This document shows, piece after piece, positions 3,927 to 53,037 of a stretch of 64,000 bases of DNA. The stretch comes from a candidate division FCPU426 bacterium. Its GTDB lineage: Bacteria; Oederibacteriota; PGYV01; Palsa-1178. The translations under genes were made by a program, and so were the position numbers. Position 1 is the first letter of the stretch. The number at the start of each line of letters is the position of its first letter. The notes under the pieces were generated by a model, which saw only the letters and a program-made list of their open reading frames with translations, was not told where the DNA came from and ran no database searches. Location of the stretch: NCBI GenBank assembly GCA_963840035.1, contig CAWIXE010000001.1, positions 332,503-396,502 on the forward strand. The letters are read 5' to 3'.

Positions 3927-3938
3927 TGGGTGGTGGCG

Positions 3939-4142
3939 CTGCCGGCGGCGGGAGTGGCTGGTGTTTTTTGATACAGCACAGGCTCAAACTGCTGCTTCAA
4001 GTAAACTCGCGACATTTTCTCCGGCACGTGCGGATACTCTCAAAGTAACCCTCTGAACCTCACGCGTGTTATATTCCCCACTTTTGGATAACCTCGCCCA
4101 ATTAAACCCGTATCAAAAAAACAGCAGACGCTCACACCGACG
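3939..4142. repeat. MITE-like element family A, copy 1 (about 200 bp, terminal inverted repeats)
   Basis: Left end CGGCGGCGGGAGTG. Right end CGCTCACACCGACG, close to the reverse complement. The body is nearly identical to copies at 4208-4412 and 15384-15587. Confidence 0.6.
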
Positions 4143-4207
4143 GCTATGGGATGTGGGTTGAAGGTAAGGTCAAAAGTGGACAGGATATGGCAAAAATAAC
4201 CGCAACG

Positions 4208-4412
4208 CTGCCGGCGGCGGGAGTGGCTGGTGTTTTTTTGATATAGCACAGGCTCAAACTACTGCTTCAAAATATCTCCCGCAAATCTCTCCGGCACGTC
4301 CGCACACCCTCAAAGTAACCCTCTGAACCTCACGCGTGTTATATTATCAACTTCCGGATAACCTCGCCCAATTAAACATGTATCAAAAAAACAGCAGACG
4401 CTCACGCCGCCG
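4208..4412. repeat. MITE-like element family A, copy 2 (in tandem with copy 1)
   Basis: Same termini (CGGCGGCGGGAGTG ... CGCTCACGCCGCCG) and internal sequence as copy 1, about 90 percent identical by eye. Confidence 0.6.
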
Positions 4413-6447: not shown

Positions 6448-6870
6448 TTATTTTTTTGCGCGTCTTTTAGCGAGAACTTCGTTTATTATCGCGGCGATTT
6501 TCGGGTTGGAAAGAAGTATTTTTTTAAAGTCCTTTTTATAAAGTATGAAAAGTTCCCCGGATTCCACGGTGGTGACTGTCGCGGTCCTTGGAAGGTCGGT
6601 GACAAGCGCCATTTCCCCGAAGAAAGCCCCCTGCCCGAGTTCCGCCACTTTTTTGTTGTTTATTGTTACGGCGAATGCGCCGGCGCCGATCAAGAAAAAT
6701 TTATCGCCAATCTCGCCCTGTTTGATTATGACTTCGCCCTTTTTTGCCATCCTTTTTTTCAGGGATTTTATAAGCGCGTCAAGGTCGGAAATATTCAGCG
6801 AGTAAAAAAAATCGACCTGTTTTAATGAATCCCTTAACATTGACATGTCGTCTAAAGCCATTGCCGTCAC
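6448..6870 (-). CDS. Stand-alone cyclic-nucleotide-binding (CAP effector) domain protein
   Basis: Canonical cNMP-binding signature GEIGDKFFLIGAGAF...FGEMALVTDLPRTATVTTVESGELFILYKKDF. There is no HTH or other effector domain. Confidence 0.7.
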   Translation of the reverse strand: MTAMALDDMSMLRDSLKQVDFFYSLNISDLDALIKSLKKRMAKKGEVIIKQGEIGDKFFLIGAGAFAVTINNKKVAELGQGAFFGEMALVTDLPRTATVTTVESGELFILYKKDFKKILLSNPKIAAIINEVLAKRRAKK

Positions 6871-7414
6871 CTCTATGCAGATAGTTTAACCCCGCCGGTA
6901 AGCCGGCGCGCCGCCTTAAATAACCCCCATGGCTAAAACCAGCGGCACGGGTTCTTTTCACGCCAAATTCCTTTTAAAACAACAACAAAATCCATTTTAT
7001 ACCTGTTTTTTTACTTTGTCAACGGTGTTTTATAATAGGGAAAGGGGGTAGTAAAACCAAATATAAGTCATAAACCAGGAAGAATCTCAGACCGGATGTC
7101 CGCAAGGATGTGATAATAATCGCTTTATTTGACAACAAATAATAATATCATTATATTTTATTAGGGTTTATTTTGATAATGTCTTGAATCAAGGCACAGT
7201 GTTGGGTTTGTTGGCTTGCGGTGTTCGGCGGGTATAAGAAGAATAATTTTATTCCAATTTTGTAAGTTTTACATGCATTTGCACATTGTGCTTTATTTAT
7301 AAGGGTGTTTTTCTGCCATTGTCTATTGTCAAGGCACGATGTTGTGTTGTTATTAATCGCACTTAATGTGCGAAAAATACTTGATGTTATCTTCATTTCC
7401 GGTTGTTTTCCCGA

Positions 7415-8137
7415 TTAATCAAGATCAAATGGGAATTTTTTAATGGGCACAAATACAATTACAAAAAACGCAAATAACAATCTTAAACTCAATAATATTT
7501 TTGCATTATTATTGATACAACTTCCAAATATTTCTTCAACATTTGCCAACATAAAAAAAACAAGAAAAACAAAAACCATAATTATTCGAAAAAATATTTT
7601 ATAGTTTTTTCTTCTTGAAACTGCTTTATCAAAGTTATCTCTTAGCATTTCAAGCTTTTTCAATTTATTAATTATTCTGTTATTTTCCATTATATGTGCT
7701 TTGCATTTATTTAATACTTCAAAAAAGAAAAAGTTGCTGTTGAATAGACCGCTTATTTGTAAGTTTTCCTTGTCGTTGTTTTTGTATAAAATTTCTAAAC
7801 CATATGAATCAAACATATCCGAAAGCATAATTCCATAAATTTTATTGTATTGAATCTCATTTCGTAAAGTTTTTCCACTAAATAACAACTGTACAATTGT
7901 AAACCTATCCTCTTCCATTTCTATCCATTCCCTTCCAACCCGTCTTAAAAACTTCCCGTCATAAATCATAATTATAATACTTGCCACAGCCATACCGAAT
8001 CCTGACTTATCTCTAACCGCATTATCTATACCAAATATTAATATTTCAAAAACTAATATAAATACAGCAAATAATACCATTAACATTAAATATTTGTACC
8101 TATATAAATCATACTTGTATTTTTTAATCATACTCAT
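7415..8137 (-). CDS. Small polytopic membrane protein, candidate immunity protein for the upstream RHS C-terminal toxin
   Basis: 240 aa, AT-rich codon usage, 4-5 TM helices. It starts 1 nt after the stop of the RHS-tip ORF, a typical toxin/immunity arrangement. Confidence 0.5.
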   Translation of the reverse strand: MSMIKKYKYDLYRYKYLMLMVLFAVFILVFEILIFGIDNAVRDKSGFGMAVASIIIMIYDGKFLRRVGREWIEMEEDRFTIVQLLFSGKTLRNEIQYNKIYGIMLSDMFDSYGLEILYKNNDKENLQISGLFNSNFFFFEVLNKCKAHIMENNRIINKLKKLEMLRDNFDKAVSRRKNYKIFFRIIMVFVFLVFFMLANVEEIFGSCINNNAKILLSLRLLFAFFVIVFVPIKKFPFDLD

Positions 8138-8782
8138 TTACTTTCCTTCTATACATATAGGTTTAATTATAAAATGATTTATTAATGCGATACTAAGCGG
8201 AATTTCTGGTGCAAATAAAGACGTTACAACCATAGCAACTGAAACTGTACATTCATAACTCATTTTATAAAGTGCTTTTTTAGGATCTTTTTCACTTTCT
8301 TGTATATATTTTAAATTTGAATCAAGTGAAATGGCTTCAAATATTCCACCTTCTAATTTAAAAATTCTACTAAGTTTAAGAAAATTCGCTTTTTTAATCA
8401 AATGTGCGCTTTTTTCAAGTGAGTATGAAATTAATATCGTTCCGAATGAACTTTCCTCAACAAATTCTCGACTATAATTTTCTGTAGCTAATCCTTTATC
8501 CCCATCTTCGTAATTTTCCTTAACTTTGCTTCCATTTTCTTTACTTTGTTCTTCAAAATCAGCATCTAAATGAGCCTTCATTGCTTTTAGCGCTTCTTTA
8601 TAAGCATCACTTCCTGGTTCTAATGTATTTATTCCATATGAGTCTGAATTATATTCCCCAGCAGCAACATTTATATAATAACGCCCATTCTCATCATATG
8701 CTTCCCCATATTTATCAGTTAATCCTAAAGGATTGTTGTTACAATACTCATAACTATTTATTATATTATTTTCATTCAGCAC
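8138..8782 (-). CDS. Orphan RHS/YD-repeat C-terminal toxin tip (no RHS body)
   Basis: It begins with the end-of-RHS-core motif NIINSYEYCNNNPLGLTDKYGE, followed by a unique 190 aa C-terminal domain. Confidence 0.6.
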   Translation of the reverse strand: MLNENNIINSYEYCNNNPLGLTDKYGEAYDENGRYYINVAAGEYNSDSYGINTLEPGSDAYKEALKAMKAHLDADFEEQSKENGSKVKENYEDGDKGLATENYSREFVEESSFGTILISYSLEKSAHLIKKANFLKLSRIFKLEGGIFEAISLDSNLKYIQESEKDPKKALYKMSYECTVSVAMVVTSLFAPEIPLSIALINHFIIKPICIEGK

Positions 8783-8823
8783 AGGATCAATTTCTTGTCC
8801 TGCCTGTCAATTATTGTCACTTT

Positions 8824-9681
8824 TTACCCCGCAAATTGGTTGACATTTTGTTCTCCGGATTTGATCAAACACAACCCCATATCTACAACTGATTTTACCA
8901 CGGCCTTCCTCACAACGTCAAGTTTATCCAGTCCCGGTATTTTCTGTTTTTCAATTTCCGCAATCGCATTTTCAGCTTTTTTAATTAGCTCATGCTTTTC
9001 TTCGTTTTTGTATATTTCTCCGTTTTTGAAAACTTCAGCGCTTGTTTTGCCGTCAAATATACGCCGCGGCATTTCGTGATTAATCTCATAAATCGCTCTT
9101 TCAAATTTGGCGTATACTTTTTCGTAATTTAACCCTCCTTTTTCAGTTTTCAGATATTTCTCAAATATCTGATTTTCGCGCTCCAGTTTCCCGTTGAAAA
9201 GCGGATAATGCCCGGGGCTGGGCATCGTGAGAATCTCTTTTTCTTTCAAATAACTTATTAATACTTCGTTCTGAAACTCAGAACCCCTGTCAGTTTTAAC
9301 CACAAGCGGTTTTATTCCCTGCTCGTTCATCACGCGTTCAAGCAGGATTTTCGCCTTTTCACCGGTATTTGAATAACTCATAATCCAACCAAGCACACAC
9401 CTTGAGTACTCCTCAAATACCAGCTGAACATACACATACCCTTCTTCGCAGCGTATTTTAATCGTATCTAGCGCCCAGCTGACATGCTTTTTTAGCCATT
9501 CAACTGACTTGTACTCTTTCTTTCCCGCTTTTTGCTTTTTCCTGGGCCCAAAATACTCATAAACTATTTTTGCAACGCTGCTTGGCGATATACCCGCTTT
9601 TATTGCCAAAACATAATTAGTTGATATTTCCGAAAACCTCCGTTTTAATTCCAGCACCCGGAGTATTGTTTCACCAGACAA
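8824..9681 (-). CDS. IS3-family transposase OrfB (integrase core, DDE)
   Basis: rve motifs VVKTDRGSEFQN and PSPGHYPLFNGKLERENQ. The frame is open upstream as far as the A9 site at 9865-9873. Confidence 0.7.
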   Translation of the reverse strand: MSGETILRVLELKRRFSEISTNYVLAIKAGISPSSVAKIVYEYFGPRKKQKAGKKEYKSVEWLKKHVSWALDTIKIRCEEGYVYVQLVFEEYSRCVLGWIMSYSNTGEKAKILLERVMNEQGIKPLVVKTDRGSEFQNEVLISYLKEKEILTMPSPGHYPLFNGKLERENQIFEKYLKTEKGGLNYEKVYAKFERAIYEINHEMPRRIFDGKTSAEVFKNGEIYKNEEKHELIKKAENAIAEIEKQKIPGLDKLDVVRKAVVKSVVDMGLCLIKSGEQNVNQFAG

Positions 9682-9788
9682 GGCCCACGGCGCATGTTTC
9701 GGCCCTGTCTTTTGGGGTTCCAGGGTATCTTTCTTTTTCCACGCATAATAATACTCCCTTGGAACCCCGATTGAATCAAAATACGCCT

Positions 9789-10295
9789 TTATACTTCCTC
9801 CGTTTTGTACGGTTTCTTCGGCACTTCTGAGTATATTTCTTTTAACACTTTCCGCATATTGGCGTTTTTTTTTGCGCCGTCTTCATCGTTTTTTTCAAAG
9901 AAGCTCGTTGCTTTCCTGGCTATCTGCAGTTCCTGTGTCGCCTTTTTCTTTTCTTCCTCCAGTATCCGGATCTTTTCCTCCAGCTTCCGCTGTTCTTCCT
10001 GCGCCTTTGTCACTGTTTCCCTCAGATCCTCTTCCTTCACGTAGTTCTTCGGCTTCCTGCCTCTCTTCTCCGTCTTCAGGAACGCCCTGGCTATCCCTTC
10101 CAGCGCTATTTTCTTCCACTCCCGGAACGTCTCCCTCGATATATCCATCTCCTCGCAGACCTGTTTCACCTTCTTTTCCTTTGCCATTACTTTCAGTACT
10201 GCCTGAAACTTCACCTCGTATGGGATTTCCCTGTAGTACTTCGTGGATTTCTGTTCCATCATTTCCTGCTGAATTTTCTCCTGTTCCATTTTCAA
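9789..10295 (-). CDS. IS3-family transposase OrfA (HTH plus leucine zipper)
   Basis: YREIPYEVKFQAVLKVMAKEKKVKQVCEEMDISRETFREWKK is HTH-like. A coiled-coil heptad region follows. The probable ATG is at 10289, preceded by an AAGGGGG ribosome-binding site. Confidence 0.7.
   Translation of the reverse strand: MKMEQEKIQQEMMEQKSTKYYREIPYEVKFQAVLKVMAKEKKVKQVCEEMDISRETFREWKKIALEGIARAFLKTEKRGRKPKNYVKEEDLRETVTKAQEEQRKLEEKIRILEEEKKKATQELQIARKATSFFEKNDEDGAKKNANMRKVLKEIYSEVPKKPYKTEEV
9865..9873 (-). promoter_or_regulatory. Programmed -1 ribosomal frameshift site (A9) joining OrfA to OrfB
   Basis: On the minus strand the zero frame reads GGC GCA AAA AAA AAC (GAKKN). I translated the -1 frame from the A-run and it stays open through ...PREYYYAWKKKDTLEPQKTGPKHAPWAL into SGETILRV of OrfB. 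Confidence 0.55.
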
Positions 10296-10299
10296 TTAC

Positions 10300-11469
10300 C
10301 CCCTTATTTTCTTTATTTTCCTTTTTTTCCTCCACTGCATCTAACCCCTCAACCATAACACTTCCTTCTTTTGCTATTACCCGTATTTCTTTTCCGCCTA
10401 TTTTTCCGATTAAATACATAGGCTCTTTTAATTTTCTCGGGTCAACAATTAGCGCGTCTTTTACCATTCCTGCCCCTTTTTCCATAACTTCACGCACCGA
10501 CTTTTCAACGCTGAAAAACCTGTCAGCAGGCAGTAACCCATCAATCCCCTGATGCGGCCTTTTGAAGTTATACCATTCCACCCATTTTCCTATCTTTTCC
10601 TGCGCGTCTTCAAAGCTGGATATCGGCTCTTTACTTAGTAATTCCTGGTACATATTCCGCCAGAGCGATTCAACTTTTCCGCAGGTTTGGGGATGATACG
10701 GCCGGCTTCTCAAATGGCTTATTCCGCTTCTTGTAAGGAATTTTTGAAATGTGCTTTTCCCCCTCCAACTGGCAAACTGCCTGCCGTTATCAGTAAGCAC
10801 TTCTTTTGGCATGCCGTACTTTTCTATCGCGTTTTTTAGCACATCCAGGACCCTGTCGCTGGTTTGGTTCCGAAATACCCCTATACTGACGACAAACCGC
10901 GAATAATCATCCAGACATGCTATTACATATATCCGGTACAGCCCCTGCAGCATAAATGTCATTATATCCATCTGGTACATGTCGCCGGGTTTGCTTCTTT
11001 CAAAACGCTGCGGTTCCTTTTGACTATTTCCATGCCGCAGGCTTTTTTCCTGTACCATTGTTGCTGTCTGAGGGTCGGTTCGGAGGACTTTTTCAATACC
11101 GTCGCGGCATACTTTTACGAACTTATTGCGCATCAAATAATCCCCGATTTTCTTAACTCCAATTCCGGGATTTTCCAGCTTTAATTTGACTATTTCCGCT
11201 TTTACCGCTTCCGGTACTTCCTGCGCTACTTTGCCGCCGCGGTTATCTTCCAGCCCCTCTTCACCGCCTGTTTTGTACCTTTCTTGCCAGCTTTTAAAAG
11301 TACCGACGCCCATTCCATACCACTTACAGAACATAGTAATAGGCGCACCTATCTGTTCAAATTCTTTTAGCAGTTTTAGTTTTTCTTCTTTTGAGTAGAT
11401 TTTACCGGCGGAGTCGCTTTTTGTGTATTTTCTCTTTCCCTTTTCTTTCTTTTTCTTCATGAACCACAT
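10300..11469 (-). CDS. DDE transposase, IS481-like (N-terminal HTH plus rve core)
   Basis: Motifs VLTDNGRQFAS and SRPYHPQTCGKVESLWRN. The ORF-track frame (9895-11469, 524 aa) continues as low-complexity G/E-rich read-through across the IS3 OrfA region. The true 3' end probably lies near 10300. Confidence 0.65.
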
Positions 11470-11525
11470 ATATTTTACCTCCTCTTTCGTTGAATTTCCA
11501 GAGGTAAAATGTCAACCTATTTCAA
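10300..11525 (-). mobile_element. IS481-like insertion sequence (single DDE transposase); its 3' end abuts or is cut by the IS3 element
   Basis: The transposase ATG at 11469 is preceded by an AGGAGG ribosome-binding site. The left boundary is inferred from the abrupt end of the helicase fragment at 11530. Confidence 0.5.
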
Positions 11526-11529
11526 TGGG

Positions 11530-11712
11530 TTAGCAGTTATGATAATTGACGGCTAGGATAACCCTTGTCTTCCCGCTTCCGGCGCCGGCAAGAATCAGTA
11601 TGGGCCCGTCCTTGTGCTTTACAGCCTCAAGCTGTTCTTTATTCATAAGTTCATTAATATTGCTGTTTGTCAATGCTTTGGCTCCATGTTTTTTTCCTGA
11701 GTGGTCATACAA
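11530..11712 (-). pseudogene. Stub of a UvrD/PcrA-like helicase N-terminus (60 aa, Walker A only)
   Basis: [32 protein letters not shown] is the helicase motif I region. The ORF ends about 5 bp from the inferred IS481-like edge. Confidence 0.5.
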
Positions 11713-11855
11713 TTCCTAAAGATTATATAATGGAAAGGAGTTTTGTCAAGCAAGGATTAAAAACATTTCTAATCTTATTTATATATATAATTATATTTCT
11801 CGTAATTTATTTGGTTGCGTTTCTTTGAAACTGAGTATTAACGCACGAGTTAGAT

Positions 11856-12305
11856 TTAAGTATTTGTGCCCTTCCGTTTCCTTAAAACTGTTGACATACA
11901 ATCTATTAACAACACACTTAGCGACATACCAAATATGCATGTTATTATTCCGATTTTAAATGCCATCTGAAAAAACTCCCTATACTTGATAAATTTTTTT
12001 GATTCCTCTATTAGGTCGTTGTTAAAAATTAAAAACAAAAAAAACACCGCGGATGTAATTATTATGCTTATAATAATTCTTGCATATCGCCGTATTTTAT
12101 TTTTATCCCCCAAAACAGAGTAAGCATCCTCAACAAAAAACGGAATTAATATAACAAACATAAGGTATGTGGAAATTAAATAAGAAATATATTTTTTAAA
12201 TCCAACTTTTTCCAATAACAATGATAATACAACACAGCTTATTAACACACAACTATATACAATAAATTTTAATATTGCCTTTTCGTTTTTTTTAGGTTTG
12301 TTCAA
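11856..12305 (-). CDS. Small membrane protein, candidate immunity protein for the upstream RHS C-terminal toxin
   Basis: 149 aa, 4 TM helices, AT-rich. It starts 7 nt after the stop of the RHS-tip ORF. Confidence 0.45.
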   Translation of the reverse strand: MNKPKKNEKAILKFIVYSCVLISCVVLSLLLEKVGFKKYISYLISTYLMFVILIPFFVEDAYSVLGDKNKIRRYARIIISIIITSAVFFLFLIFNNDLIEESKKFIKYREFFQMAFKIGIITCIFGMSLSVLLIDCMSTVLRKRKGTNT

Positions 12306-12311
12306 CTCAAA

Positions 12312-13147
12312 TCATCTCCAGCCTTCAATAATATCCGTTAAAGCTAAATAACCACCTTGTTCTATTAAAATAAGTCCTGTCCCCTTTGCAAGGAATCCTG
12401 GCAATCCCGGTATATTGGTTTTAAGCAATAAACTTCCAGCTCCGATCAGGTATGTTTTAAGCTTTCCGTCACTCATGTCAAATGGATCAAATTCTTGTTT
12501 AACTAATGGTTGTGTCATTAAAACCGCATCAAATATCAAACAAGAATTATCGTAAAAGTCCGAAGAGAAAAAGTCATTGTCTGTTGTTTCTAAGTAATTG
12601 TTGTCACTAATTACTTTATCATCACCATTTATATACTCAATCTCAGCTTCGTTGGGACAAGAAGTATTATAAGGATTTCCATAATTATCATTATTCGGGT
12701 CATCATACATATTCGTTGATTTTGGATTTCTCCAATCGTTTTCTTCATCAACTTCATAATCAACATCATTATTTGAAGTAGCTTCCTCCTCAGATCTCAT
12801 TTCCTCACAATCTGCCTCAATATGAGTCCATCCATCAGAATCAACATAATCCTCTCCATACCTATCTATTAGATTTGTGGGATTGTTTGCGCAATACTCA
12901 TACGTATTAATTATGTTATTTCCTTCCAACACAGGATCGTTTTCAATAAATCTCCCCGTATTTGCATCATACCACCTTGCGGCAAAGTAGTAAAGCCCGG
13001 TGTCGGGGTCGTACATGTTTGAGGACAGGCCGAATTTGCTTATGCCGTTTCCTGTCCTTTTCCCGAACTCATCATCTGTTTCCCTCTCCAGCACCTGTCC
13101 TTTCTCATCACAGACCATATATACGCTTCCTATGCGGTCGGGGTATT
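12312..13147 (-). CDS. Orphan RHS core-end plus C-terminal toxin domain fragment
   Basis: Contains ...RIGSVYMVCDEKGQVLERETDDEFGKR...DPDTGLYYFAARWYDANTGRFIENDP...NTYEYCANNPTNLIDRYGE, the conserved RHS core terminus. An acidic, unique C-terminal domain follows. The frame opens only at about 13147 (TAG upstream), so no RHS body is present. Confidence 0.65.
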
Positions 13148-13318
13148 GCTAAGACAGCGTCTTCAGTTCTACTTCCAAATAATGGGCGAGGTATTTCAGA
13201 AACTGGCTGTTGTCAGGTAAAAAAAAGGTGAATTTACGGTTGTTTTTTCCGATATATTTAATAGTTGCTATTTTAAAACATATGGCTTAAAATTAAAAAA
13301 GTAAAAATTACGGGGTGA

Positions 13319-15289
13319 ATGTTGAAAAAGTTCATGTTTTCCGCGGTATTCATATGCTTTTTAAGCGGCTTTTCGTTTGCCGGCGCCGAGCTTGTCGGCA
13401 CAACAAGCGAAAATTTCAGCAAGATACCCCCTTTTGCCAGGGCCGCGGCCATGGGTGAGGCTTTTACGGCCGTGTCCGACGGCACATACGGACTTTATTA
13501 CAACCCCGCCGGTATGACCCTTATATCGGGTTATGAGGCGCAGCTAACGCATATAGCCTGGTTCCAGGACATTAATTATGAATTCTTATCTCTTGTCGCG
13601 CCTTTTCCCATGATGGACTTTGGGAAGATAGGCCTTGCGCTCGCGTGGTTCCGCGTGGACGAGCTTACAAAAACATCCGCTCTTGCTTCATACGACCCGG
13701 CATACCTTGACACTGTTGACTACTCCCAGTTCACGGAAAAATTTTCCCCATTTGACCTTTCAGTCACCCTTGCCTACGCCCTGGACCTCAAGGAAAACTT
13801 TTCGGCCGGCGCTTCGCTTAAATACACCTCGCAGTTCATAGACAAATTCAACGGCTCCAACATTACCGCCGAGATAGGCTTCCTGTACCGCGTGATATCA
13901 TACGGCAATTACCTCCGCCTGGGAATTGATATGACCAACCTGGGCTCTGACTTAAAGCTGCACGACATAGGTTTTGAGCCGCCGAAACTTTTAAAGGTCG
14001 GCCTCTCAGACCAGCTGCAGATATGGAACGGCACCATGTTAATCGCGGCGCAGGCGGTCCTACCCGCGGATTACGCGCCGGTTTATTCCATAGGATTTGA
14101 ATACTGGCTTTTTGACATGGTGGCTCTGCGCTTCGGTTATAAGACAGGCGGCTTTGACCACCCCACCTTTGGCGCCGGTTTCCGGTATAATAATTTTGAA
14201 ATTGATTACGCTTACATACGTTACGATGAGCTCGGCAACACGCACAGGTTTTCCCTTCTTTACAGCTGGGGCTCGCCCGCGGTAAAGCTTAAAGTTACCC
14301 CGGCCCTTTTCTCGCCCAATAAGGATAACTTCCTTGATACTGTTTCATTCATACCCGTGTTAAAAAACCCGGAGAAGCTCAAGGCCCTTAAGCTTTCCAT
14401 ATTCGGCGGCGATAAGGAAACCGCGCTTGCCTCATTTAATCTCCAGGATAAGGCGGCTAAGTCTGTGCCGTGGGGCGGAAACACTAAAGCGGGAGTCCTC
14501 CCTGACGCTGTTTACCAGGCCTCCATCACCGCCGAGTATGATAACGGCACCTCCGAATCAAACCGTGTCTCAGTTGAGATAGACAACACGCCGCCGGTAA
14601 CAAAAGTGGACGGCGACCCGAAGCTGTTAAAACCCGGGCAAAAAGACTCGCTCATCATACCCGCCACATTCACTTTCTTCGCGCAAGACAGGAATAAGGT
14701 TTCGAAGTGGCAGTTTGTAATATGGGATTACGATAAAAAAGTGTTTTACTCCACACAGGGCAGCGGCGAACCTCCGCTCTCCATAATATGGGACGGCAAA
14801 AGCAACGACGGCTCATACGTAAAAACAGGCGAAGTTTATCATTACAGCCTTATCGCCTATGATACCGTGGGCAACCGCGGGCAGACAGCGATACAGTCAG
14901 TGGTTGTGCTCTTAAAGGAAATAAAGCTTACCTTCGCCTCAGACGCGCTTTTTGACCTTGGCGAGGCGGACGTTAAGATCTCCGCATACTCTGTCTTAAA
15001 AGATATGAAAAAGACCATAGACGCGCACCCTGATTCGGAAATAGTTGTCGCCGGATATACGGATAACATACAGCCCAGGGGCATAAAGTATAAGGACAAC
15101 ACCGAACTTTCAAAAGCGAGGGCCGACGCTGTCAAGTTCTTCATGGTAAACCTTCTTGAATACGATGAAAAAAGGATCAAGACCGAGGGTTACGGGGAGC
15201 TTATGCCCATTGCCGATAATAACACGGAAGAAGGCAGGCTGAAAAACCGCAGGGTGGATATCATCATACGCAGTACCATTTATAAATAA
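13319..15289 (+). CDS. Outer-membrane protein with an N-terminal beta-barrel (PorV/FadL-like), a FlgD-Ig-like middle domain and a C-terminal OmpA-like peptidoglycan-binding domain
   Basis: Signal peptide. ARAAAMGEAFTAVSDGTYGLYYNPAG barrel motif. WDGKSNDGSYVKTGEVYHYSLIAYDTVGNRG matches the FlgD Ig-like fold. The OmpA C-terminal signature is AGYTDNIQP...LSKARADAV...GYGELMPIADNNTEEGRLKNRRVDIII. Confidence 0.6.
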   Translation: MLKKFMFSAVFICFLSGFSFAGAELVGTTSENFSKIPPFARAAAMGEAFTAVSDGTYGLYYNPAGMTLISGYEAQLTHIAWFQDINYEFLSLVAPFPMMDFGKIGLALAWFRVDELTKTSALASYDPAYLDTVDYSQFTEKFSPFDLSVTLAYALDLKENFSAGASLKYTSQFIDKFNGSNITAEIGFLYRVISYGNYLRLGIDMTNLGSDLKLHDIGFEPPKLLKVGLSDQLQIWNGTMLIAAQAVLPADYAPVYSIGFEYWLFDMVALRFGYKTGGFDHPTFGAGFRYNNFEIDYAYIRYDELGNTHRFSLLYSWGSPAVKLKVTPALFSPNKDNFLDTVSFIPVLKNPEKLKALKLSIFGGDKETALASFNLQDKAAKSVPWGGNTKAGVLPDAVYQASITAEYDNGTSESNRVSVEIDNTPPVTKVDGDPKLLKPGQKDSLIIPATFTFFAQDRNKVSKWQFVIWDYDKKVFYSTQGSGEPPLSIIWDGKSNDGSYVKTGEVYHYSLIAYDTVGNRGQTAIQSVVVLLKEIKLTFASDALFDLGEADVKISAYSVLKDMKKTIDAHPDSEIVVAGYTDNIQPRGIKYKDNTELSKARADAVKFFMVNLLEYDEKRIKTEGYGELMPIADNNTEEGRLKNRRVDIIIRSTIYK

Positions 15290-15383: not shown

Positions 15384-15587
15384 CTGCGGCGGCGGGAGTG
15401 GCTGGTATTTTTTTGATATAACTTTGGCTCAAACTTCCGCTGCAAGTAGACTCCCGGAAATCTCTCCGGCCCGGTTGAATACCCGCAAAGTAATCCCTGA
15501 ACCTCCCGCGTGTCATATTATTATTTTCCGGACAACCTCGCCAAATTTGACATATTATCAAAAAAATAGCGGACGCTCACGCCGCCG
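15384..15587. repeat. MITE-like element family A, copy 3
   Basis: CTGCGGCGGCGGGAGTGGCTGG ... CGCTCACGCCGCCG. Same terminal inverted repeats and internal blocks as the copies at 3939-4412. Confidence 0.6.
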
Positions 15588-15646
15588 TGTGGGTTTTGGT
15601 TTGAAATTTGGAGATGTTTGAATGGTATTGATTTAATCACTGGAAC

Positions 15647-31443: not shown

Positions 31444-31509
31444 GTCATTGCGAGGAGCCGCTTTTATATTTATGGCGACGAAGCAATCTCTTCCTTACAA
31501 CGCAATGAC
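31444..31509. repeat. Family D palindromic element, short variant (GTCATTGCGAGG...CGCAATGAC)
   Basis: It shares the outer arms and the GACGAAGCAATC core with the full copies at 39569, 48501 and 52879. Confidence 0.55.
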
Positions 31510-35579: not shown

Positions 35580-36831
35580 GTATCTGCCCGCTTCCCCTTA
35601 CTATGTACTTCTCAGAGGTAAGTTCATTTAATCCCATGGGCCCGCGCACGTGGAGCTTCTGGTTTGAGATTCCCATCTCGGCGCCGAGCCCGAATTCAAA
35701 GCCGTCGTGCAGGCGCGTCGAGGCGTTTACAAAGACAGCGGCCGAATCCACCTCGGCCTCAAAACGTTCCGCTGCTTTTTTATCCCTGGTGATGATGGCG
35801 TCTGAGTGGTGCGAGCCGTACGTGTTTATGTGGCTGATGGCCTCGTCAAGCGACGCCACAACCTTTATATTAAGTTTTAAATCATTGTATTCTTTCCTGA
35901 AATCCTCATCAGCCGCGTTTTTCGCCGTAGGAAGGAATTTTTTAGCCGCTGCTTCGGCCTTTAACTCCACATTCCCGTTTAAAAATTCCTTTTCCGCCAT
36001 AGGCAGGAATTTTTCAGCTATGTCCTTATGCACCAGCAGCGTCTCCATGGCGTTGCATGTGGAGGGCCTCTGTACCTTCGCGTTATATGATACCTTTATT
36101 GCCATTTCCAGGTCGGCCTGCTTATCCACGTAAGTGTGGCATATGCCCGCGTCATGGTATATTACCGGTATCATGGAATTCTCCGCGACAAAATCAACAA
36201 GCCCTTTTCCTCCGCGCGGGATTATGACGTCTATGTAGTCCTTTAATTTGAGCATCTCGGCTATCGCGTCCCTGTCCGTGGTTTCCACGACTTCGACGCA
36301 CCCTTCAGGCAGCCCGGCTTTTACAAGAGCTCCGCGTATTATTTTCCCGAGGCACATGTTGGAATTATAAGCGTCGGAACCGCCGCGCAGTATCACGCTG
36401 TTTCCTGATTTAAGGGTAAGCGATGAAGCCTCCACACCGACATTGGGCCTTGATTCAAATATTATGCCGACCGTTCCCAGGGGCATCCTGACCTTCATTA
36501 CCCTCATGCCATTCGGGCGTTTTACGCTTGATGTTACCTTACCCACGGGGTCAGGCAGTTTTATGACGTCCTTAACAGACTTTATCATGGTGTCTATGTA
36601 TTTGTCGTCCAGGGTAAGCCTGTCTATGAATGCTTTGGTAAGGCCGCTTTTTATCCCGGCTTCTATGTCTTTTTTATTCTCGGCGATAATTACAGCCCTG
36701 TTCTTATCAAGCTCTTCTGCTATGGTGTTTAAGGCCGCGTTCTTTACCTTGGTGGCTGTCTTCATCAGCACATAAGACGCGTCCTTCGCCCTCTTTGCCT
36801 GTTGTAGTATCTTTTCCTTAATGTCCGCCAT
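35572..36831 (-). CDS. proA: Gamma-glutamyl phosphate reductase
   Basis: An aldehyde-dehydrogenase-family protein with the ProA pattern. It overlaps nadD by 8 nt. Confidence 0.85.
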   Translation of the reverse strand: MADIKEKILQQAKRAKDASYVLMKTATKVKNAALNTIAEELDKNRAVIIAENKKDIEAGIKSGLTKAFIDRLTLDDKYIDTMIKSVKDVIKLPDPVGKVTSSVKRPNGMRVMKVRMPLGTVGIIFESRPNVGVEASSLTLKSGNSVILRGGSDAYNSNMCLGKIIRGALVKAGLPEGCVEVVETTDRDAIAEMLKLKDYIDVIIPRGGKGLVDFVAENSMIPVIYHDAGICHTYVDKQADLEMAIKVSYNAKVQRPSTCNAMETLLVHKDIAEKFLPMAEKEFLNGNVELKAEAAAKKFLPTAKNAADEDFRKEYNDLKLNIKVVASLDEAISHINTYGSHHSDAIITRDKKAAERFEAEVDSAAVFVNASTRLHDGFEFGLGAEMGISNQKLHVRGPMGLNELTSEKYIVRGSGQIRG

Positions 36832-36840
36832 GTTTCATCC

Positions 36841-36960
36841 TTTTTGTTTTGTAAAACCTTAACCCTTATCCTCATCCTTATCCTAAGCCTGTAGCTCTTG
36901 CTTTTAGATCTAAGGCTAAGTGCTAAGGGTAAGGATTAAGTATAAGGATAAGGTTCTTCC
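36841..36960. repeat. Family C CT-rich palindromic repeat, single diverged copy
   Basis: TAACCCTTATCCTCATCC...AGCCTGTAGCTCTTGCTTTTAGATCTAAGGCTAAG...AAGGATAAGG. Related to the tandem array at 38110-38830. Confidence 0.55.
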
Positions 36961-36969
36961 TAACCCTTG

Positions 36970-38109: not shown

Positions 38110-38830
38110 ATATAAAACCTTAACCCTTACCCTCACCCTTATCCTTAGCCTGTAGCTCTTGCATTTAGATTTAGAGCCAGAGCCAAATGCTAAGGTTAAG
38201 AATTAAGGATAAGGGTTAAGGTGCTACTTAACCCTCACCCTTAGCCTGTAGCTCTTGCATTTAGATTTAGAGCCAGAGCCAAATGCTAAGGTTAAGAATT
38301 AAGGATAAGGGTTAAGGTGCTACTTAACCCTCACCCTTAGCCTGTAGCTCTTGCATTTAGATTTAGAGCCAGAGCCAAATGCTAAGGTTAAGAATTAAGG
38401 ATAAGGGTTAAGGTGCTACTTAACCCTTACCCTTACCCTTAGCCTGTAGCTCTTGCATTTAGATTTAGAGCCAAAGCCAAATGCTAAGGTTAAGAATTAA
38501 GGACAAGGGTTAAGGTGCTACTTAACCCTTACCCTCACCCTTAGCCTGTAGCTCTTGCATTTAGATTTAGAGCCAGAGCCAAATGCTAAGGTTAAGAATT
38601 AAGGATAAGGGTTAAGGTGCTACTTAACCCTTACCCTCATCCTTATCCTTAGCCTGTAGCTCTTGCATTTAGATTTAGAGCCAGAGCCAAATGCTAAGGT
38701 TAAGAATTAAGGATAAGGGTTAAGGTGCTACTTAACCCTTACCCTCATCCTTAGCCTGTAGCTCTTGCATTTAGATTTAGGCCCAGAGCCAAATGCTAAG
38801 GTTAAGAATTAAGGATAAGGATTAAGGTGC
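38110..38830. repeat. Tandem array (about 7 copies, period about 95-102 bp) of family C CT-rich / AG-rich imperfect palindromic repeat
   Basis: Unit TTAACCCTTACCCTCACCCTTAGCCTGTAGCTCTTGCATTTAGATTTAGAGCCAGAGCCAAATGCTAAGGTTAAGAATTAAGGATAAGGGTTAAGGTGCTAC. The copy number of the CCCTTACCCTCAC sub-block varies. Confidence 0.7.
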
Positions 38831-39546
38831 TACCTGACTTCCACCGCTGCCGCATTATTCGCCGTATTGCTTTTTACGTCGGCGTCTATAAAGTACTGCT
38901 TTACGACCGTCCATCTTTTCGGCGGCCAGTAAACCAGCCACGCCCTTCCGCGGAAATACTCCCCGGGCAAAAAACCCCAGTGGCGCGAATCAGCCGAATT
39001 ATCCCTGTTGTCGCCCATCATAAAATAGGAACCTGCCGGAACTTTTATCGGCCCGAAATTGTCCCTGTATGAATCACCGTATGTTTTTTTATCGCTGTGC
39101 CACACATAAGGCTCTGATATTATTTTATTATTTATGAATAGCTGTTTGTTCTTTACCTGTATGATGTCCCCCGGCAGGCCGACGCAGCGCTTTATGAACA
39201 TTATATTAATATCCTGGGGATAGCGGAATATAGCGATTTCCCCCCTTTTTGGCATGGGAAACTTTACTGCTTTTTGCGCCTTTTCCGGAAGCAGCGAGCC
39301 GTATGCCCATTTATTAACGAGCAGCTGGTCCCCTTTAAGGAACGTATGCTCCATGGATTCCGAAGGTATCCTGAAGGCCTGTATGAAAAATATCCTTAAA
39401 ACCGCCGCCACGGCCATGGCAAAAAACGCCGGCTCCACCCAGTCCCGCAGTTCTGAATCCTTTACGCGTAATATGAATACGATAAGTATCTCAGCGAGGA
39501 AAAGCGTGCCGAACAGGGACCAGAAAATTATTTCCGTTACTTCCAT
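38830..39546 (-). CDS. lepB: Signal peptidase I
   Basis: SPase I boxes GDNRDNSADSRHWGF and the Ser/Lys regions. I place the start at MEVTEIIF (39546). The ORF-track N-terminal extension reads through the family D repeat. Confidence 0.8.
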   Translation of the reverse strand: MEVTEIIFWSLFGTLFLAEILIVFILRVKDSELRDWVEPAFFAMAVAAVLRIFFIQAFRIPSESMEHTFLKGDQLLVNKWAYGSLLPEKAQKAVKFPMPKRGEIAIFRYPQDINIMFIKRCVGLPGDIIQVKNKQLFINNKIISEPYVWHSDKKTYGDSYRDNFGPIKVPAGSYFMMGDNRDNSADSRHWGFLPGEYFRGRAWLVYWPPKRWTVVKQYFIDADVKSNTANNAAAVEVR

Positions 39547-39568
39547 GGCATCTCCACTTGTTTTTTTT

Positions 39569-39676
39569 GTCATTGCGAGGAACAGCATTTGTTCCATGGT
39601 GACGAAGCAATCTCTGTATTTTACCGATATAACAGGGATTGCTTCGTCGGCATACTTCAAAAACGCCTTCTCGCAA
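39569..39676. repeat. Family D 112-bp double-stem palindromic element
   Basis: GTCATTGCGAGGAACAGCATTTGTTCCATGGTGACGAAGCAATCTCTG...GGGATTGCTTCGTCGGC...CTCGCAATAAC. Confidence 0.6.
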
Positions 39677-39919
39677 TAACACCCGCATAAATACAAAACC
39701 TTGTGTCATTTTAAGTAATTTTACCTGCCCCGTCAATGCATATCTCCTCAAGTAAACGCTGTTATTAAGGAATTATTAGACTCAAACCCGACTTTTACCG
39801 TAATGCGGTCGTTATTACCGGTATTTTTATATTATAACCCAATAAAATAGGCAGTTTTTTTATTGACATCCGCTATTAAATGGGTTATAACTAAGCATAA
39901 CCAAAAAAACATAACGTAA

Positions 39920-46208: not shown

Positions 46209-46249
46209 AATTGTCTTCCTCCTAAACCCCTAATCCTTACCCTTATGTT

Positions 46250-47333
46250 CCTGCCTTGAGACGCAGACAAGCTGCGTCTCTACAATGGTTGTAAATATTT
46301 CAGCTGTGAAAACCCGTAGAGACGGGACCCGTGCCCGTCTCCGCGCTGCTGCGTTGCTGCCCTGAGACGCAGACAAGCTGCGTCTCTACAGTGTGCGTAA
46401 ATATTTCAGTTCTTAAAACCCGTAGAGACGGGACCCGTGCCCGTCTCCGCGCTGCTGCGTTGCTGCCCTGAGACGCAGACAAGCTGCGTCTCTACAGTGG
46501 TTATAAATATTTCAGCTGTAAAAACCGTAGAGACGGGCCTTGTGCCCGTCTCCACGCTGCTGCGTTGTTGCACTGAGACGCAGACAAGCTGCGTCTCTAC
46601 AGTGGGTGTAAATATTTACAGCTGTTAAACCCGCAGAGACGGGACCCGTGCCCGTCTCCGCGCTGCTGCGTTGCTGCCCTGAGACGCAGACAAGCTGCGT
46701 CTCTACAATGGGTGTAAATATTTACAGCTGTTAAACCCGTAGAGACGGGACTCGTGCCCGTCTCCGCGCTGCTGCGTTGCTGCCCTGAGACGCAGACAAG
46801 CTGCGTCTCTACAATGGTTGTAAATATTTCAGCTGTTAAAACCGTAGAGACGGGACCCGTGCCCGTCTCCGCGCTGCTGCGTTGCTGCCCTGAGACGCAG
46901 ACAAGCTGCGTCTCTACAATGGTTGTAAATATTTCAGCTGTGAAAACCCGTAGAGACGGGACCCGTGCCCGTCTCCGCGCTGCTGCGTTGCTGCCCTGAG
47001 ACGCAGACAAGCTGCGTCTCTACAATGGTTGTAAATATTTCAGCTGTGAAAACCCGTAGAGACGGGACCCGTGCCCGTCTCCGCGCTGCTGCGTTGCTGC
47101 CCTGAGACGCAGACAAGCTGCGTCTCTACAATGGTTGTAAATATTTCAGCTGTTAAAACCGTAGAGACGGGCCTTGTGCCCGTCTCCGCGCTGCTGCGTT
47201 GCTGCCCTGAGACGCAGACAAGCTGCGTCTCTACAATGGTTGTAAATATTTCAGCTGTTAAAACCGTAGAGACGGGCCTCGTGCCCGTCTAAACCCCGGA
47301 TCGATCCAGACCCCCACGAGGGGCGTCTCTACG
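46250..47333. repeat. Tandem array of about 10.5 BIME-like units (period about 105-108 bp), each holding two inverted GTAG-headed REP hairpins
   Basis: Unit GTAGAGACGGGACCCGTGCCCGTCTCCGCGCTGCTGCGTTGCTGCCCTGAGACGCAGACAAGCTGCGTCTCTACAATGGTTGTAAATATTTCAGCTGTGAAAACCC. The spacers are not unique, so it is not CRISPR. Confidence 0.75.
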
Positions 47334-48298: not shown

Positions 48299-48500
48299 CT
48301 TTTGAAATACGTTTACTTATTGTGAATTCGTACCTTTGGGGGCATTACCAACCAATAAAACACCTTAAAAATATAGCATTTATTATACTGGTGTTATTGT
48401 GTATAAGTGTTAATTGATTGTGGATAAGTAGGAGTTTGTACGAAAATTTCCGAAAACACATAATACCTTATTTTCTACGATTTTAGTATTTGTTAGGATT

Positions 48501-48612
48501 GTCATTGCGAGGAGCCGTATTTGTCTTATGGCGACGAAGCAATCTCTGTATTTCGCCAGTAGAACAGAGATTGCTTCGTCGGCGAAATTCAAATTCGCCT
48601 CCTCGCAATGAC
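48501..48612. repeat. Family D 112-bp double-stem palindromic element
   Basis: GTCATTGCGAGGAGCCGTATTTGTCTTATGGCGACGAAGCAATCTCTG...GAGATTGCTTCGTCGGCGAAATTCAAATTCGCCTCCTCGCAATGAC. Confidence 0.6.
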
Positions 48613-52641: not shown

Positions 52642-52878
52642 ATTATTCTCCTGTTGTTATTGTATGGTTCTGTAGTGGCAATTCATGAATTGCCGATCCT
52701 TCCCTGGGCGATTCGTGAATCGCCCCTACAAAAACAATGCTCATTTTTAAATAAAGCCGGGTATCCGATAACTCCTTCCGGGCATCCGGTACCGTTGCTT
52801 CCTTCCGGACCTGGCGGGGTTGCGGAGCCGGCAAGCGCATCAGACCCGGCCTTATTTTGTTTGTTTTGTTTTTATATT

Positions 52879-52990
52879 GTCATTGCGAGGAACCGCATTT
52901 GTTCTATGGTGACGAAGCAATCTCTGTATTTTACCAATAGAACAGGGATTGCTTCGTCGGCATATTACTAAAACGCCTCCTCGCAATGAC
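52879..52990. repeat. Family D 112-bp double-stem palindromic element
   Basis: GTCATTGCGAGGAACCGCATTTGTTCTATGGTGACGAAGCAATCTCTG...GGGATTGCTTCGTCGGC...CGCCTCCTCGCAATGAC. Confidence 0.6.
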
Positions 52991-53037
52991 AATAAGCTCC
53001 CTGAAATCATACAGTATACTTTTTATATGGTCAATGT

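Follow-up and report, generated by a model that had tools for sequence, protein, structure and literature searches.

The closest described counterparts of the locus reported here are the orphan rhs-CT/rhsI modules of enterobacteria, in which a displaced C-terminal toxin domain (CT) stands beside its immunity gene, and the Rhs toxin Tse5 of Pseudomonas aeruginosa. Orphan modules of the rhs and contact-dependent growth inhibition (CDI) systems gave rise to a model in which such tips serve as a reserve for tip replacement (PMC3150448), and a Salmonella orphan Rhs toxin has been reported as an internally acting, toxin-antitoxin-like module (PMC7043789). The canonical aspartyl-protease motif of these proteins reads DPxG-X18/19-DPxG; in Tse5, D1141 and D1164 are catalytic and the toxin is released four residues past the second aspartate (PMC10684867). 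Tse5-CT is a pore former, and Tsi5, which confers immunity to it, resides in the membrane as an integral protein (PMC9637101). Here we analysed a 64-kb stretch of genomic DNA from a candidate division FCPU426 bacterium (the window) and found, at positions 6871-13318, a segment in which, with a probability of roughly 0.8, two orphan rhs-CT/rhsI cassettes from an RHS polymorphic-toxin system form a short tandem array that was later damaged by an insertion sequence (IS). The cassettes are termed tipA-immA and tipB-immB, and the open reading frames (ORFs) were confirmed at the coordinates given for them on the minus strand.

Results

The tipA open frame (12312-13148, minus strand; ATG at 13118, with AGGAAG 8 nt upstream) begins directly behind an in-frame TAG at 13149-13151, a stop that the earlier note on this DNA had rightly seen and had placed at about 13147. 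Its first 99 codons (12852-13148; YPDRIG...NNPTNLIDRYGE) encode an RHS core end: residues YPDRIGSVYMVCDEKG...YYFAARWYDANTGRFIENDPVLEGNNIINTYEYCANNPTNLIDRYGE matched the Rhs_assc_core model TIGR03696 over positions 4-75 of 76 (E = 8.9e-18, 64.6 bits, against a curated cut-off of 32.5 bits), directly before the variable C-terminus. This segment carries the motif DPVL-X20-DRYG, aligns to the C-terminal plug in solved structures of Tse5, TccC3, Rhs and teneurin-like proteins, and is 58-66% identical to RHS core ends from metagenomes; homology to RHS proteins stops abruptly at the TAG. tipB (8138-8782, minus strand, with its frame open to 8806) has a GTG start with a poor ribosome-binding site and retains a core-end stub of 31 codons (8702-8794; EIDPVL...NNNPLGLTDKYGE), cut at 8794/8795 by the end of an IS. 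The core part consists of EIDPVLNENNIINSYEYCNNNPLGLTDKYGE alone, with both protease aspartates kept. Because the core is truncated, tipB aligned to the last 21 positions of TIGR03696 only and fell below the cut-off (E = 0.006, 17 bits), and its core residues share 51-61% identity with those of tipA and of relatives (tblastn E-values of 1e-9 to 1e-10). Both ORFs thus start at or near the end of an RHS core, tipA by profile and tipB by identity to other core ends, as had been read from the letters; the two motif strings had been exchanged, NSYEYCNNNPLGLTDKYGE belonging to 8138-8782 and NTYEYCANNPTNLIDRYGE to 12312-13148.

Alignment of the two tips with nine metagenomic relatives (11 sequences) located a sharp boundary at the end of the core. 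Mean pairwise identity was 69% up to ...D(R/K)YGE and 14% beyond it, the abrupt loss of similarity that marks a polymorphic CT. Within DPVL-X20-D(R/K)YGE, D71 and D95 (tipA numbering) were invariant in 11/11 sequences, so that a protease motif with two aspartates ahead of the cleavage site is present in variant form, its canonical flanking glycine and proline residues replaced. D71 and D95 correspond to the catalytic pair D1141/D1164 of Tse5 within a predicted cleavage motif, and by analogy the toxin domains would start at D100 in tipA and at A36 in tipB.

The predicted tipA toxin domain comprises the 179 aa after ...DRYGE (12315-12851, minus strand; stop codon at 12312-12314). The domain is rich in N and D and very acidic, with 39 D+E to 10 K+R, and its last ~50 aa form a Gly-rich, weakly hydrophobic tail. 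An exhaustive HMMER scan of 1.84e9 representative proteins at E ≤ 1e-3 recovered tipA itself alone, and no match was found in Pfam, in NCBIfam or, by sequence search, in PDB. The tipB domain, 187 aa after ...DKYGE (8141-8701, minus strand; stop codon at 8138-8140), combines an acidic, helical-looking N-terminal part with a hydrophobic C-terminal segment (Kyte-Doolittle 19-residue maximum of 1.81). Its relatives were exclusively CTs of metagenomic RHS tips, namely P0002 (26% identity, E = 6e-11) and P0004 (27%), with the CT of the L077 tip aligning too. tipB CT has no Pfam or NCBIfam family; a word-indexed homologue search returned tipB alone, a profile of four tipB-type CTs gave nothing further, and sequence searches of PDB, run for each CT, yielded no match or only noise (MAD2, E = 0.06). 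The description of both C-terminal domains as novel is therefore supported across Pfam, NCBIfam and PDB.

A short motif, Y-x-(E/D)-G-(D/K)-K-(G), was also observed at tipB residues ~64-72 (window ~8590-8615), 40-70 residues past the cleavage site. It recurs in P0002, P0004, P0006, P0007, P0010 and L077, whose CTs are otherwise different, but not in tipA, and possibly marks a linker or entry sub-domain that is shared.

Each toxin domain is followed at once by a candidate immunity gene. immA (11856-12305, minus strand) encodes 149 aa with four transmembrane (TM)-like segments by hydropathy and opens with a TTG at 12305, 6 nt past the tipA stop, with GGAG upstream. A homologue overlaps the 3' end of the full-length RHS gene on metagenome contig L010 (L010:7279-7755; 27% identity over 146 aa, E = 9e-15), and because this homology spans TM1, the long TTG start is supported. 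immB (7415-8137, minus strand) encodes 240 aa; its ATG, served by an AGGA ribosome-binding site, abuts the tipB TAA with 0 nt between them. Hydropathy gave three strong TM-like segments in immB, at residues 17-35, 181-199 and 214-232. Its homologues lie right behind the RHS tip P0002 (L005:7120-7836; 23% identity, E = 4e-5) and right behind the L077 tip (L077:596-1357; 25% identity, E = 2.5e-10; phmmer 2e-14), and the three-way alignment holds 25 invariant columns, including a C-terminal P....P.DL.D. The small downstream proteins are thus both multi-TM, as proposed, at distances of 0 nt (immB) and 6 nt (immA) where 1-7 nt had been given.

Searches of Pfam and NCBIfam assigned no family to immA or immB, and the detected homologues of both stand exclusively directly downstream of other RHS tips; they are not housekeeping genes. 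tipB-type CTs and immB-type ORFs co-occur in three independent loci; on sequence grounds, a predicted immunity ORF sits directly downstream of the CT and co-varies with it. As a separate observation, the immA family has been kept at 27% identity while the toxin domains paired with it, those of tipA and of L010, are dissimilar, and no explanation that we tested accounts for this.

Both tips lack the body of an RHS protein. The window encodes none, since the 1670-aa full-length relative from L010 matched just the two core ends there, bearing out the earlier note on this point; RHS repeats are absent from the whole 64 kb, and Pfam RHS_repeat was unmatched in both tips. Neither combines a YD/RHS-repeat shell (PF05593, PF25023) with an N-terminal plug (DUF6531) in the same protein, and without repeats or shell the tips are fragments, or orphans. 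Within 64 kb there is also no adjacent full-length rhs gene and no type VI secretion system (T6SS) gene, and searches of the spacers at 6871-7414, 11713-11855 and 13149-13318 found no further cassette remnants.

Base composition sets the toxin and immunity genes apart. GC content is 25.6% in immB, 30.1% in the tipB CT, 27.3% in immA and 34.8% in the tipA CT, compared with 44.6% in the tipA core end, 42.8% in the IS unit and 46-48% in the flanks; background windows of 500 nt taken beyond the island averaged 46.5% (sd 3.9). The AT-richness that had been ascribed to the whole segment therefore holds for the cassettes (26-35% GC) and not for the IS unit or the tipA core end. This drop in GC, from a core that resembles the genome to an AT-rich tip with its immunity gene, is classic for rhs loci. 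At its left edge, the island has an AT-rich spacer (6871-7414, 37% GC) without a recognisable gene, in which an 81-aa ORF (7151-7396) had no family match.

A scan of metagenomes with the core-end alignment yielded 79 loci and showed that short tips are the rule among relatives. Where the upstream stop lay inside the contig (n = 90 core ends), the open frame before the cleavage site was shorter than 400 aa in 76/90 and longer than 1000 aa in 5/90; in 33/85 loci, at least two core ends lay in tandem at spacings of 1.5-3 kb. None of the relatives has fewer than 40 core residues, as against 31 in tipB, so that secondary truncation best explains the tipB stub. The closest core ends came from metagenome-assembled genomes (MAGs) of candidate division FCPU426 and of Omnitrophota. 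Among GTDB representatives, the closest genome match was the orphan tip L003 from a candidate division FCPU426 MAG, whose toxin domain is the known Ntox44.

One relative is complete. Contig L010 (OCZT010002689.1) carries a full-length RHS gene (L010:2289-7301, 1670 aa; RHS_repeat E = 4e-42, DUF6531) closed by the same core-end type as the tips. Its N-terminus is signal-peptide-like and has no PAAR match, a sequence feature that hints at T6SS-independent export in this RHS lineage. In other contigs, a Polbeta nucleotidyltransferase and HepT-like toxin-antitoxin pair (L005:5303-5978) stands immediately before the orphan tip P0002, and a RhuM/Fic gene before the L003 orphan tip; orphan tips of the lineage tend to sit among other conflict genes.

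Between the cassettes lies an IS unit of 2767 bp (8795-11561, minus strand) bounded by imperfect inverted repeats of ~55 bp (8795-8849 and 11506-11561). It holds an IS481-type transposase of 524 aa (9895-11469, minus strand; NF033577, E = 1e-64), an IS3-OrfA-like helix-turn-helix ORF recognised by family match (9789-10295, minus strand) and an rve/DDE ORF (8824-9681, minus strand) that is 22% identical to the 9895-11469 transposase. The IS481-type protein scored 218.7 bits with NF033577 against a cut-off of 224 bits and exceeded the cut-offs for rve and rve_3; over its last ~200 residues the frame reads on through low-complexity sequence and overlaps the next ORF, which lies in a different frame. 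Two transposase sets thus stand in tandem inside one inverted-repeat pair. We found no internal inverted repeats separating them and no target-site duplication (AATTTC against CCCTTG), so that neither a nested arrangement nor a tandem hybrid can be proved. IS3-like and IS481-like elements and a helicase stub do separate the cassettes, as had been described; the absence of internal repeats leaves the description of the elements as nested without support.

The element is present in several copies, at least for 9890-11561: short-read contigs from the same sample break at the ends of the IS unit, a repeat contig (L006) corresponds to 9890-11561, and an identical 524-aa transposase is recorded on a 1.7-Mb contig while the tips lie on a 1.235-Mb contig. 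One IS end cuts a UvrD/PcrA-like helicase past its Walker A motif GAGSGKT, leaving an N-terminal stub (11562-11712, minus strand; PF00580, E = 5e-10, positions 1-32 of 271), and the other cuts the tipB core at 8794/8795. Ends that truncate two unrelated genes, with no target duplication, indicate that the IS unit mediated a deletion or rearrangement between the cassettes.

Two promoter-like sites were seen on the minus strand in and beside this unit. TTGACG-18-TAAAAT with an extended TG (8892-8921), inside the right end of the IS, faces tipB and immB; it is a consensus match only and could drive immB expression. A perfect TTGACA-16-TATAAT (11722-11749) precedes the UvrD-like stub, and transcription from it would enter the IS unit.

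Neighbouring genes and repeats

On the left, the island is flanked by a cNMP-binding gene (6448-6870). The right flank is formed by a gene (13319-15289) for a 656-aa protein whose C-terminal part is an OmpA domain and whose N-terminal part gave weak PorV/UPF0164-like matches; envelope glycosyltransferases, an O-antigen-ligase-like protein and a PMT_2 protein are encoded around it. No tRNA or other integration landmark occurs in the window, and the sole Rfam match is the signal recognition particle (SRP) RNA (52752-52851), distant from the island.

Several repeats were noted elsewhere in the window. A non-coding tandem array at 46247-47290 consists of 9.9 copies of a 106-nt unit (94% matches) with two GC-rich hairpins, GAGACGCAGACAAGCTGCGTCTC and GAGACGGGACCCGTGCCCGTCTC; it has no Rfam match and no covering ORF of at least 150 aa. 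A second non-coding array (38129-38833; 102-nt unit, 7 copies, 93% matches) shows ACCCTT/AAGGGT-type inverted motifs at the unit ends, with degenerate copies at 36829-36968. An intergenic repeat of ~200 nt is found in three copies of 76-88% identity (3937-4142, 4206-4412 and 15387-15588), the last of them shortly downstream of the flanking OmpA-family gene. A dispersed repeat of ~115-126 nt occurs in both orientations with 82-90% identity (39558-39681, 48498-48612 and 52866-52991, with a partial copy at 31444-31491), and its copy at 52866-52991 adjoins the SRP RNA gene.

Discussion

The match of the core, the divergence past DRYGE and the paired membrane ORFs together support the proposal that this is a displaced or decaying polymorphic-toxin locus, and the significant TIGR03696 match of tipA removes the doubt whether an RHS core is present at all. 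Each cassette would comprise the plug that ends an RHS shell, with its two aspartates, a variable toxin domain of ~180 aa and a translationally coupled gene for a polytopic inner-membrane immunity protein. As they stand, with neither a YD-repeat shell nor an N-terminal export region, the tips are undeliverable. By analogy with orphan modules elsewhere, they would most likely form a silent reserve, graftable by homologous recombination through the core end onto a putative full-length rhs gene elsewhere in the genome, while the immunity genes could already protect the cell against neighbours deploying the same toxins. tipA is intact as a cassette, and in tipB the would-be recombination handle was reduced to 31 residues by the abutting IS end.

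Several results weigh against this interpretation or leave part of it bare. No full-length rhs partner was found, the searches having covered the 64-kb window of this genome and GTDB representatives that do not include it. The core ends of tipB and tipA share 78% nucleotide identity over 65 nt, so the tips are not recent duplicates and offer each other no recombination handle. The tipA CT has no detectable similarity to the L010 CT, which is paired with an immA homologue; in shuffling comparisons the whole CTs gave a z-score of 0.9 and the last 75 residues 2.5 (49/2000 shuffles reached the score), neither of them significant. The tail of tipA is weakly hydrophobic, with a Kyte-Doolittle maximum of 1.06. 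Structure prediction, which had been suggested as a check, was carried out with AlphaFold2 for both CTs and produced no usable model: the predicted local distance difference test score (pLDDT) was 35 for tipB from a 4-sequence alignment and 37 for tipA from an 11-sequence alignment. Both models are uninformative, and no fold search was made with them, matches to models of pLDDT 35-37 being meaningless.

How the toxins would act is less settled than what the locus is. The cytoplasmic membrane may be the target of both, through depolarisation or pore formation, with the immunity proteins blocking them inside the membrane; we give membrane targeting close to an even chance, if anything slightly less. 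The membrane immunity proteins, the hydrophobic or Gly-rich tails, the lack of an enzymatic signature and the Tse5/Tsi5 precedent point this way, and the CTs of tipB, P0002, L077 and L010 all end in TM-like hydrophobic or Gly-rich segments. Neither CT resembled a characterised membrane-active toxin in the PDB sequence, Pfam and NCBIfam searches. The strongest competitor, somewhat less probable and still to be taken seriously, holds that the CTs are enzymatic toxins of unrecognised fold, such as nucleases, NADases or toxins that target lipid II or peptidoglycan. Most characterised Rhs-CTs are enzymes, and Ntox44 is found in a close relative; acidic and polar residues make up most of the tipA CT, whose tail is only weakly hydrophobic, and the tipA and L010 CTs, each standing before an immA-type protein, are mutually dissimilar. 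Against enzymes, however, no catalytic family or PDB structure was matched, both immunity proteins are polytopic membrane proteins, which is unusual where the toxin is a cytoplasmic enzyme, and the tails of the tipB, P0002, L077 and L010 CTs are TM-like or Gly-rich.

A different role for the cassettes as a whole is improbable, and two versions of it were weighed against the silent reserve. The tips might be translated from their own starts and held in check by the immunity proteins, as toxin-antitoxin-like modules for addiction or growth control, for which the Salmonella case offers a precedent (PMC7043789). The tipA ATG at 13118 does have AGGAAG 8 nt upstream, both toxin-immunity pairs are tightly coupled, and the promoter-like site at 8921-8892 in the IS end faces tipB; yet a consensus-only scan, whose consensus may not be that of the host, gave no strong promoter match upstream of tipA, tipB starts from a GTG with a poor ribosome-binding site, and a toxin fragment without a shell would need to reach the membrane from the cytoplasm.

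Less probable still is that one or both tips did not arise by C-terminal displacement but are relics of a full-length rhs gene that once stood here and lost its body by IS-mediated deletion, their role now limited to immunity. The missing body in 64 kb, an IS unit that joins unrelated flanks (the helicase stub and the tipB stub) without target duplication, and a tipB core shorter than that of any relative fit such a history. tipA does not: its homology starts at YPDRIG, as is typical of orphans (relatives start at LYMVCDEKG, 8-10 residues later), and its limit is an in-frame stop followed by a 170-nt spacer up to the divergent OmpA-family gene, not an IS. The common layout is, moreover, that of tips in tandem, sharing one orientation and spaced by 1.5-3 kb, and both the CT and the immunity ORFs are intact. 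Chance ORFs in AT-rich DNA are ruled out by the homologies found for the tips and the immunity ORFs.

With the reserve of orphan cassettes as the preferred reading, the architecture is textbook polymorphic-toxin biology and changes no concept; the arrangement is already well known, and what is new are the toxin and immunity sequences, two toxin domains and two membrane immunity families without an entry in Pfam, NCBIfam or PDB, and their value as a source of new parts. They belong to an RHS lineage that is poorly sampled, appears T6SS-independent and uses the variant cleavage motif DPVL-X20-DRYGE. If the toxins do target membranes, they would offer compact candidates (about 50-60 hydrophobic residues) for studying depolarisation by RHS peptides and its blocking by polytopic immunity proteins. 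A bolder proposal, which we think unlikely to hold, is that each cassette stands for a family not described before, in which a small RHS toxin acts on membranes and its immunity protein is polytopic, in an uncultured-type lineage whose full-length RHS proteins have a Sec-type signal peptide and not a PAAR/T6SS adaptor, and that what the immunity proteins guard is possibly a membrane target or a route of insertion, with no specific binding of the toxin; the conservation of immA while its paired toxins diverged beyond detection could mean just that. Finally, the locus illustrates how IS elements erode orphan cassettes, the recombination handle of one having been removed.

Comparison with known systems

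Pore-forming colicins and CdiA-EC93 are membrane-active toxins countered by polytopic membrane immunity proteins, as immA and immB are candidates to be. CdiA and the colicins are delivered by other routes (two-partner secretion and colicin uptake, respectively) and have no sequence relationship to the tips.

The Dickeya dadantii 3937 rhsC locus and its counterparts in Yersinia pseudotuberculosis and Salmonella Typhimurium (PMC3150448, PMC7043789) share with the present locus a piece of core, a sharp CT boundary and a small immunity ORF, as well as the tandem arrangement in one orientation and a CT and immunity gene that are AT-rich relative to the core; orphan CdiA-CT/CdiI modules follow the same logic of a displaced toxin-immunity cassette (PMC3150448). 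The motif differs, being DPVL-X20-D(R/K)YGE here and DPxG-X18-DPxGL in enterobacteria. The present cassettes have neither a full-length rhs gene adjacent nor T6SS genes within 64 kb, their host belongs to an uncultured-type lineage, and one of the two modules is truncated by an IS.

Within its own lineage, the locus shares its core-end type (58-66% identity) with the L010 RHS protein, P0002 on L005, L077 and L003. An immA-type gene follows the L010 RHS gene, and immB-type genes follow the P0002 and L077 tips. Unlike the tips, the L010 protein has a complete shell (RHS_repeat, DUF6531) and a signal-peptide-like N-terminus, and its CT has no detectable relation to that of tipA.

The nearest functional parallel is Tse5 (RhsP1) with Tsi5 (PMC9637101, PMC10684867), likewise a CT without enzymatic motifs paired with a membrane immunity protein, membrane action being a prediction for the tips. 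The two share the same aspartyl-protease plug, and the tipA core end aligns to Tse5 residues 1023-1118. PDB searches detected no sequence similarity between their CTs or immunity proteins. Unlike the tips, Tse5 is a full-length, PAAR-like protein delivered by the T6SS.

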